Of a stretch of DNA of 64,000 nucleotides, positions 52,717 to 52,848 are shown one piece after another (position 1 is the stretch's first letter; every line of letters starts with the position of its first letter). The notes below the pieces were generated by a model. It searched no databases, was not told the origin of the DNA, and saw only the letters and a program-made list of their open reading frames with translations. The DNA is taken from positions 79,152 to 143,151 of the IMG/VR virus record IMGVR_UViG_3300020576_004053; one strand, 5' to 3'. The DNA is from a virus (Duplodnaviria > Caudoviricetes). A program made the position numbers and the translations under genes.

Positions 52717-52733
52717 AATGTTAGTAGTAATAT

Positions 52734-52836
52734 GTTGGTGTGCTGCTACGCCAAAACCGGTAACGTTAGACTGCCTTGCCGACAGGGTTATCCAGTACTC
52801 TTTAAAAGATGGCTGCTTCTAAGCCAACTTCCCAAC
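52734..52836 (-). ncRNA. 23S rRNA H43/H44 (uL11-binding, GTPase-associated centre) mimic
   Basis: GTTGGCTTAGAAGCAGCCATC-TTTTAAAGA...GCGTAGCAGC closed by GTTGG/CCAAC; no other rRNA sequence in the flanks. Confidence 0.85.
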
Positions 52837-52848
52837 AATATTAAAGGT

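Follow-up and report, generated by a model that had tools for sequence, protein, structure and literature searches.

A phage RNA family that appears to mimic the GTPase-associated centre of 23S ribosomal RNA as a free-standing gene

The virus record IMGVR_UViG_3300020576_004053 (Caudoviricetes) carries an RNA gene of about 110 nucleotides (nt) that is a free-standing mimic of the GTPase-associated centre (GAC) of 23S ribosomal RNA (rRNA), the part of this rRNA bound by protein uL11 and contacted by the translational GTPases. The gene lies at 52730-52841 on the minus strand of the window, by which we mean the whole stretch of DNA analysed, the final 64 kb of this 143-kb IMG/VR record (completeness estimate 79%). 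The two ends of the RNA together rebuild nucleotides 1051-1108 of E. coli 23S rRNA, and a hairpin of 41 nt breaks the 5' strand of helix 44 (H44). Reading 5' to 3' on the minus strand, a helix arm is followed by a GAA linker, the stem-loop of helix 43 (H43), a junction strand up to the equivalent of A1088 and the 41-nt hairpin, and then by a UUU linker, an H44-like hairpin with A1095, the triplet ACA and the 3' helix arm. Comparison of sequences strongly supports the view that this RNA is a mimic kept under selection for the GAC fold. Its parts, in E. coli 23S numbering, are these:

52730..52841, minus strand: the whole RNA gene; matched by covariance model R1 at 52728-52841 with 100.8 bits.
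52832..52841, minus strand: 5' arm of the closing helix, in place of the top of helix 42 (H42); pairs with 52730-52738, and 6/6 pairs covary family-wide.
52806..52830, minus strand: H43 mimic (equivalents of A1057-U1081), holding the A1067 loop and an exact 21-mer (52808-52828); covariation is seen at pairs 1057:1081 and 1058:1080.
52797..52805, minus strand: junction strand with the U1082-A1086 tertiary pair, G1087, A1088 and a family-specific GU; 1082:1086 covaries.
52756..52796, minus strand: the 41-nt hairpin in the 5' strand of H44, a variable insert; its closing pair covaries.
52739..52755, minus strand: UUU linker, H44 hairpin mimic (G1091-C1100, loop UAGC with A1095) and the equivalents of A1101-C1102-A1103.
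52730..52738, minus strand: 3' arm of the closing helix, pairing with 52832-52841.

A sequence-only reading of this DNA had described an exact 21-nt match to E. coli 23S rRNA, a kept H44 hairpin, a closing helix that still pairs with a different sequence and an insert of about 45 nt. The first three were confirmed, and the insert measured 41 nt, close to the estimate. The 21-mer occurs once in the window, and shuffled sequences are expected to hold it 0.00 times even at three mismatches. When 52729-52842 was compared by BLAST with 5,426 E. coli genomes, the sole target was the 23S rRNA gene, which was hit in every genome over about 37 nt (query positions ~9-47) at 92-94% identity. The 5' block (equivalents of G1056-A1088) differs from E. 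coli by two changes, and these are both sides of the pair 1058:1080, turned from U-A to A-U. The H43 hairpin with its conserved loop 1065-1073, in which 1057-1064 pair with 1074-1081, is thus present. The 3' block retains the H44 hairpin with A1095; the hairpin pairs G1091-C1100 and C1092-G1099 and the pair G1087-C1102 are present in the window copy. The closing helix is unlike H42 in sequence and still pairs. The continuous 5' strand of H44 (A1088-A1089-A1090) was not found: the 41-nt hairpin interrupts it here, and 27-340 nt interrupt it in other members of the family described below. We looked for flanks that continue as rRNA and found none, as there was no Rfam match at E ≤ 10 across 52000-53700 and the flanks are not large-subunit rRNA. 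A second copy of the mimic is absent from the 143-kb record. The folding energy of the single window sequence is unexceptional (z = -0.8), which is usual for tertiary-structured RNAs and carries little weight.

The window RNA proved to be one member of a large family. A scan of IMG/VR with the exact H43 21-mer gave 94 stretches and 60 distinct sequences; two of the 94 stretches (L069 and L081) run on as true 23S rRNA, and the remainder share one architecture. The canonical E. coli sequence given in the earlier reading is seen in one of these rRNA-bearing contigs, L081. A second scan of IMG/VR used a motif on the H44 side and left H43 unconstrained; it gave at least 99 further loci. Covariance model R1, built from an alignment of 25 short members (A1), confirmed 88 of these loci and brought at least 78-82 more distinct members. 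In total, the scans and the covariance model, a type of search that had been suggested earlier, gave a family of at least 138 distinct full-length members of 96-416 nt (median 201), among which the window copy is one of the shortest. The members come from IMG/VR phage contigs, cultured phages and a few contigs of metagenome-assembled genomes. Their shared architecture can be written as arm; R-A-N; H43; N'..UAARGAGU; X[insert]X'; UUUGG-CGUA-RN-AGCACA; arm. Three cultured phages have a full member in their finished genomes: Aeromonas phage 4_4572 (MK813943, ~75078-75368), Cronobacter phage GAP32 and Xanthomonas phage XacN1. Matches to the core were found in Pectobacterium CBB, Serratia BF, Erwinia pEa_SNUABM phages, Yersinia fHe-Yen9-04 and a Vibrio phage, and also in Ralstonia RSP15, Pseudomonas pf16, Milchi and Astolliot and Acinetobacter ME3. 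In the cultured-phage records the region of the mimic is without annotation or is labelled as a hypothetical protein (the latter in two records). Bacterial genome assemblies scanned with the 3' motif gave 80 pattern matches, six of them real members and most of the others due to chance. These six lie in dense same-strand tRNA arrays and therefore look like phage or prophage DNA.

All members share features that are absent from rRNA, namely the GAGU...UUUGG junction with the insert and A in place of U at 1101; the latter was seen in every non-rRNA member. Because these derived features are common to all, the comparison of sequences indicates that the family goes back to one ancestor and not to repeated capture from hosts. 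Rfam 15, searched at gathering and permissive thresholds with the window and 12 other members, returned only tRNA and tmRNA (transfer-messenger RNA) matches. We could not find the family described in a full-text literature search, whose scope took in few subscription journals, so a prior description is not fully excluded. One member, L144 (1051-1180), has rRNA-like sequence that persists past the closing helix on both sides and an extra hairpin in the 3' strand of H43; this form may be nearer to the rRNA ancestor. A separate observation concerns a true rRNA copy (L196, 23S rRNA of E. coli NIPH17_0020), in which four bases, one AAAG repeat unit, are apparently missing at the H43/H44 junction when compared to L081. 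This gap may be an assembly or copy variant.

We assessed the fold by covariation in two sets of sequences. In A1, with a hand-drawn GAC structure, 95.7% of pairs are standard, compared to 75.3% after shuffling. Covariation scores 0.51, whereas shuffles score 0.12; none of 500 shuffles reaches 0.51, and slid controls give at most 0.16. The second set consists of 82 sequences found independently of H43, and all counts given for it refer to the matches listed. In this set 93% of pairs are standard against 70%, compensatory changes occur at 15 of the 18 pairs and the count of doubly changed cells is 323 where 94 are expected, although its alignment was fitted to the model and therefore leans somewhat toward structure. 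The covarying pairs are all six of the closing helix, 1057:1081, 1058:1080, 1062:1076, 1064:1074, the pair that closes the insert (GC 45, AU 18, UA 7) and the tertiary pair 1082:1086 (UA 33, CG 23, AU 8). In the same set U1060 (75/75), A1088 (77/77), G1071 (71/72), C1072 (72/72) and the GAGU block (77/77) are kept, and A1084 and A1085 vary hardly or not at all. Position 1061 accepts any base (U 37, A 26, G 9, C 3). It is not conserved among natural rRNAs either (PMC6239185), and A1061 stabilises the Mg2+-dependent fold of the natural domain (PMC6239185; PMC2719339). A1067, G1068 and A1070 are kept in 82%, 73% and 78% of sequences, respectively. A1095 and A1098 are kept in nearly all members; within the set ascertained by H43, A1095 is lost in two lineages only. 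The rRNA letters at loop positions 1096-1097 are retained in 24 of 60 members, and one member (L048) has a compensatory A-U at 1091:1100. The closing helix ranges from 2 to 33 bp across the family with arbitrary sequence. The insert is present in every member at the same site, with a length of 27 to ~340 nt and a sequence that is unrelated between lineages. A copy of the sarcin-ricin loop was not found in the inserts of 138 members at up to three substitutions, and nhmmer found no relatives of the window's insert.

Close relatives of the window copy agree with this picture. Protein-database homologues of the R2K ATP-grasp gene next to the mimic led to two phages that carry it, L329 (R2K 94% identical; R1 score 86.7 bits) and L324 (91%; 79.6 bits). 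The only differences among the three copies are at 1061, 1070 and 1096-1097 and at bases of the insert loop, apart from compensatory changes that affect the closing helix and two of the insert's helices. In L324 the closing helix has a compensatory change from U-A to C-G plus one added C-G pair, and the insert hairpin of the close relatives shows two more compensatory pairs. RNAalifold applied to the three copies with no structure supplied gave the same four helices. Thus, the earlier suggestion that selection acts on structure, and that this is not stray rRNA, is strongly supported by the family of 138 sequences, by heavy covariation and by the compensatory changes among the three close relatives.

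It turned out that the mimic travels with tRNA genes. The mimic shares the minus strand with every one of the window's 30 tRNA genes and with its tmRNA gene. In the family, tRNAs are present at 48 of 59 loci; at each of these 48 the closest tRNA has the orientation of the mimic, as do all 196 tRNAs located within 2 kb. At 20 loci a tRNA begins or ends at a distance of 0-10 nt from the closing helix, and some of these loci have one on either side. An all-against-all BLAST of 1,032 flanking open reading frames (ORFs) found no conserved protein neighbour; the best cluster covers 6 of 60 loci and resembles a multi-copy gene of homing-endonuclease type. Genes for uL11, bL12 and RelA/SpoT are absent from the virus record. 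Since no phage protein recurs and these genes are absent, any protein partner of the RNA must be the host's and common to many bacteria.

In natural rRNA, the 58-nt domain folds independently and serves as the binding site of the uL11 C-terminal domain (PMC1802607; PMC2719339), the interface being formed by nucleotides 1058-1060, 1062-1065, 1075-1083 and 1088 (PMC1802607). These published positions are the most conserved or covarying ones in the family. The sole H43 position off the interface list is 1061, and it is the free one. The pocket of thiostrepton, the N-terminal domain of uL11 and factors is less conserved than the interface of the C-terminal domain. Therefore, the selected property appears to be the fold together with an inferred binding of uL11. 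Our preferred interpretation, held tentatively and with a little less than even confidence, is that the mimic is a stable trans-acting RNA, predicted to bind host uL11, and a decoy of the ribosomal stalk base.

The RNA would be transcribed together with the phage tRNA array and released by RNase P and 3' processing enzymes, with the closing helix acting as an acceptor stem. For most members, this proposal is based on the closing helix abutting the ends of tRNAs. The RNA would then fold by itself into a compact three-way junction of H43, H44 and a surrogate H42, with the variable helix protruding from the 5' strand of H44. Host uL11, bound through the conserved interface, would give an off-ribosome copy of the stalk base. 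uL11 is needed for the activation of RelA and affects RF1-dependent termination. As a decoy or sink, the RNA could draw uL11 off ribosomes, and uL11-poor ribosomes would not activate RelA and would have altered RF1 termination. As another option, the RNA may divert something that attacks or senses the GAC. The sequence-only reading had proposed a decoy for uL11/uL10, translational GTPases, RelA activation, thiopeptides or rRNA-targeting toxins, and the data narrow these candidates to some extent, with the pattern of conservation in favour of uL11. Binding of uL10 is unlikely, because the closing helix is arbitrary in sequence and length and is without lower H42. A universal decoy for thiopeptides or for the factor-binding loop is weakened by the variation of A1067 and 1096/1097 in part of the family. 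Phages already alter the stalk by encoding bL12 domains (PMC6375957), and by analogy the mimic would be the RNA counterpart of these domains.

Several points weigh against a trans-acting uL11 decoy. The window copy does not abut tRNAs, the nearest being 860 nt upstream, so its ends are undefined, and a spacer of 13-16 nt separates it from the start codon of the following gene. R2K without the mimic occurs in four more distant phages that share the synteny of the tRNA array; the mimic is therefore dispensable in some lineages. With tens of thousands of ribosomes to be stripped of uL11, the RNA would have to be very abundant. An insert would be superfluous in a pure sponge, but all members have one. 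Finally, about 18% of members are without A1067, so the family is not a perfect copy of the functional site.

The decoy idea can also be turned from uL11 to effectors aimed at the ribosomal site. The RNA may soak up an effector of the host, of a competitor or of a defence system that recognises the folded GAC (an ADP-ribosyltransferase, nuclease, methyltransferase or thiopeptide) and so spare the ribosomes needed by the phage, by analogy with phage tRNAs that counter tRNA-directed defences. We regard this as unlikely. A toxin for this site exists: Tre23 ADP-ribosylates H44 of 23S rRNA at 1095-1098 and blocks the GTPase of EF-G (PMC8661411). The near-universal retention of A1095 and A1098 fits such a target; however, 1096 and 1097 within the Tre23 site are free, and A1067 varies. 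The tRNA/tmRNA island of the window also holds genes for a Ro60/TROVE protein, a PARP-like ADP-ribosyltransferase and the R2K ATP-grasp protein, with an RNA ligase gene in L324, which is a typical context of RNA conflict and repair. On the other hand, we know of no anti-phage system aimed at the GAC, and a substrate decoy must compete with all the ribosomes of the cell.

A lower probability falls to the idea that the GAC fold, with or without uL11, is a nuclease-resistant handle and that the lineage-specific insert does the work; we consider this improbable. The constant site of the insert and its unrelated sequences would be expected from a scaffold. However, the window copy and L106/L132 have only a plain hairpin of 27-41 nt, the loop of which differs even between close relatives, and it is the core that is nearly constant across phages that share no proteins.

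Another idea concerns the gene that follows the mimic in the window:

51871-52716, minus strand: gene of an R2K-clade ATP-grasp protein (PF14243, 8.8e-16; phrog_7313), starting 13-16 nt after the mimic.

The RNA could be a cis-acting leader, bound by uL11 or another factor, that controls this downstream ORF. It directly precedes the R2K start codon in the window and L329 and an RNA ligase gene in L324, the short spacer is conserved and no Shine-Dalgarno sequence is visible. But many genes of this phage are without a Shine-Dalgarno sequence anyway, and most members of the family are flanked by tRNAs on both sides or lie away from gene starts. In addition, R2K is absent from about 190 mimic loci, and the four related phages mentioned above have R2K homologues without a nearby mimic. 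We therefore consider a leader very unlikely, and a purely cis-regulatory role for the family is unlikely, while a side effect in the lineage of the window is possible. That the element is a stray rRNA fragment, an assembly chimera or a coding stretch (the minus-strand ORF 52788-53072 or plus-strand ORFs) can be practically dismissed: the local identity to 23S rRNA, the overlapping ORFs of 45-94 amino acids (aa) and the hypothetical protein annotated over the element in two cultured-phage records are outweighed by flanks that are not rRNA and differ from the true rRNA loci L069 and L081, by the derived junction and A1101 that indicate one origin, by presence in finished cultured-phage genomes, by compensatory substitutions in helices, and by an ORF product that matches other loci over the RNA core only.

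R2K was also considered as a conserved partner of the mimic and rejected, because it is absent at the other mimic loci and four syntenic R2K phages are without the mimic. Related phages have R2K homologues at the corresponding position of their tRNA arrays whether or not the mimic is present, and in L324 an RNA ligase gene and a tRNA-Asn gene lie between R2K and the mimic. A tblastn search with R2K and five other neighbours gave nothing relevant in about 95 mimic loci, and a viral scan seeded with R2K gave no relative.

A second structured RNA of about 165 nt lies directly 5' of the mimic (52849-53013, minus strand) and has a 13-bp closing stem and complementary loops. Its homologue is found between two tRNAs in another mimic-bearing phage (L058, 195-371; nhmmer E 4e-5), and the closing stem and the loop-loop pairing covary. 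L324 has this RNA and shows a compensatory change in it, and L329 lacks exactly this segment. Neither Rfam nor E. coli gave a match. As a second rRNA mimic it was rejected, since it has no E. coli match and a motif scan gave only chance matches in coding sequence. The ORF 52788-53072 that overlies it is probably spurious. In L324, a third hairpin-closed module of about 103 nt (2655-2760) lies between this upstream RNA and the mimic. The RNA genes at this locus behave as independent cassettes that are precisely gained and lost.

Other genes of the same tRNA region were noted. A Ro60 homologue (TROVE and Ro60 vWA domains) is encoded at 31221-32936 (minus strand), close to two 128-nt tRNA-like genes at 34415-34542 and 34813-34940 (minus strand). 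In both of them the anticodon arm is replaced by 56-69 extra nt, and they are called by the Rfam tRNA model and not by ARAGORN. Possible identities are Y-RNA-like (YrlA-type) partners of Ro60 and intron-bearing tRNAs. Adjoining the Ro60 gene, 29238-30470 (minus strand) encodes a protein of 410 aa with a PARP-type ADP-ribosyltransferase domain (PF00644, 4.7e-23). The phage tmRNA is at 19661-20011 (minus strand) with the tag GTNTRLALAA, and a tRNA-like gene at 23446-23519 (minus strand) has an abnormal two-base anticodon according to ARAGORN. Four mimic-bearing loci elsewhere (L007, L021, L053 and L088) contain a tRNA with the anticodon CUA, of amber suppressor type, which ARAGORN calls tRNA-Pyl.

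We compared the mimic with known systems. With the bacterial 23S GAC it shares the sequence of the H43 stem-loop, the H44 hairpin with A1095, the three-way junction, the fold-defining U1060, G1071, C1072 and A1088, the covarying pair 1082:1086 and the free position 1061. It differs in being phage-encoded among tRNA genes and not within rRNA, in having an arbitrary helix for part of H42, a helix of 27-340 nt inserted between the equivalents of A1088 and 1090 and A instead of U at 1101, and in its relaxed loop 1096/1097 and, in some members, A1067. Leaders of ribosomal-protein operons (the rplJ/L10 leader RF00557 and the L1-binding rplKA leader) are likewise off-ribosome RNAs that imitate a protein-binding site of rRNA, and the L10 leader, like the mimic, imitates the stalk region. 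However, these are cis-acting 5' untranslated regions with a loose structural resemblance to the rRNA site, whereas the mimic is a discrete gene among phage tRNAs, near-identical to the rRNA site and with no ribosomal-protein gene nearby. No Rfam match to such leaders was obtained, uL11 and bL12 genes are absent from the record, and the mimic is flanked by tRNAs or by unrelated genes. GOLLD, ROOL and the "species 1/2" RNAs of phage T4 resemble the mimic as structured phage RNAs near tRNAs and probably co-processed with them; the stable species 1/2 RNAs belong to the tRNA cluster of T4. The mimic has no Rfam match to GOLLD or ROOL, neither of which has been reported to copy an rRNA domain, and the phage search found no match to the mimic in T4. 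Phage pseudo-ToxI RNA, which reportedly neutralises ToxN, is similar in that a phage makes an RNA resembling one of its host and with it neutralises or diverts a protein of the host; the two cases differ in the molecule imitated, in the fold and in the proposed target.

Returning to the trans-acting uL11 decoy, it is possible, though on balance doubtful, that phages of many lineages make a particle of off-ribosome GAC RNA and host uL11 that disarms a uL11-dependent response or traps a stalk-directed factor. Candidate targets of this particle are ppGpp (guanosine tetraphosphate) synthesis driven by RelA, RF1-dependent termination and a still-unknown defence at the stalk base. In this phage the mimic would be one module of an RNA-conflict island that also includes tRNAs, tmRNA, Ro60 with Y-RNA-like genes, the PARP-like enzyme and the R2K ATP-grasp protein. 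The mimic is also a natural minimal GAC construct, the "expansion" site of which tolerates 27-340 nt. The idea is testable at once, since the carriers include cultured phages with laboratory hosts (4_4572, GAP32, XacN1, RSP15 and pf16). If it is true, this would extend viral mimicry of the translation machinery to a new kind, in which a near-exact copy of a ribosomal RNA domain is selected in phages that share almost no proteins. It would also be a new class of anti-host RNA that imitates a piece of the ribosome, and would suggest that the stalk base (uL11/GAC) is contested by phages and bacteria.
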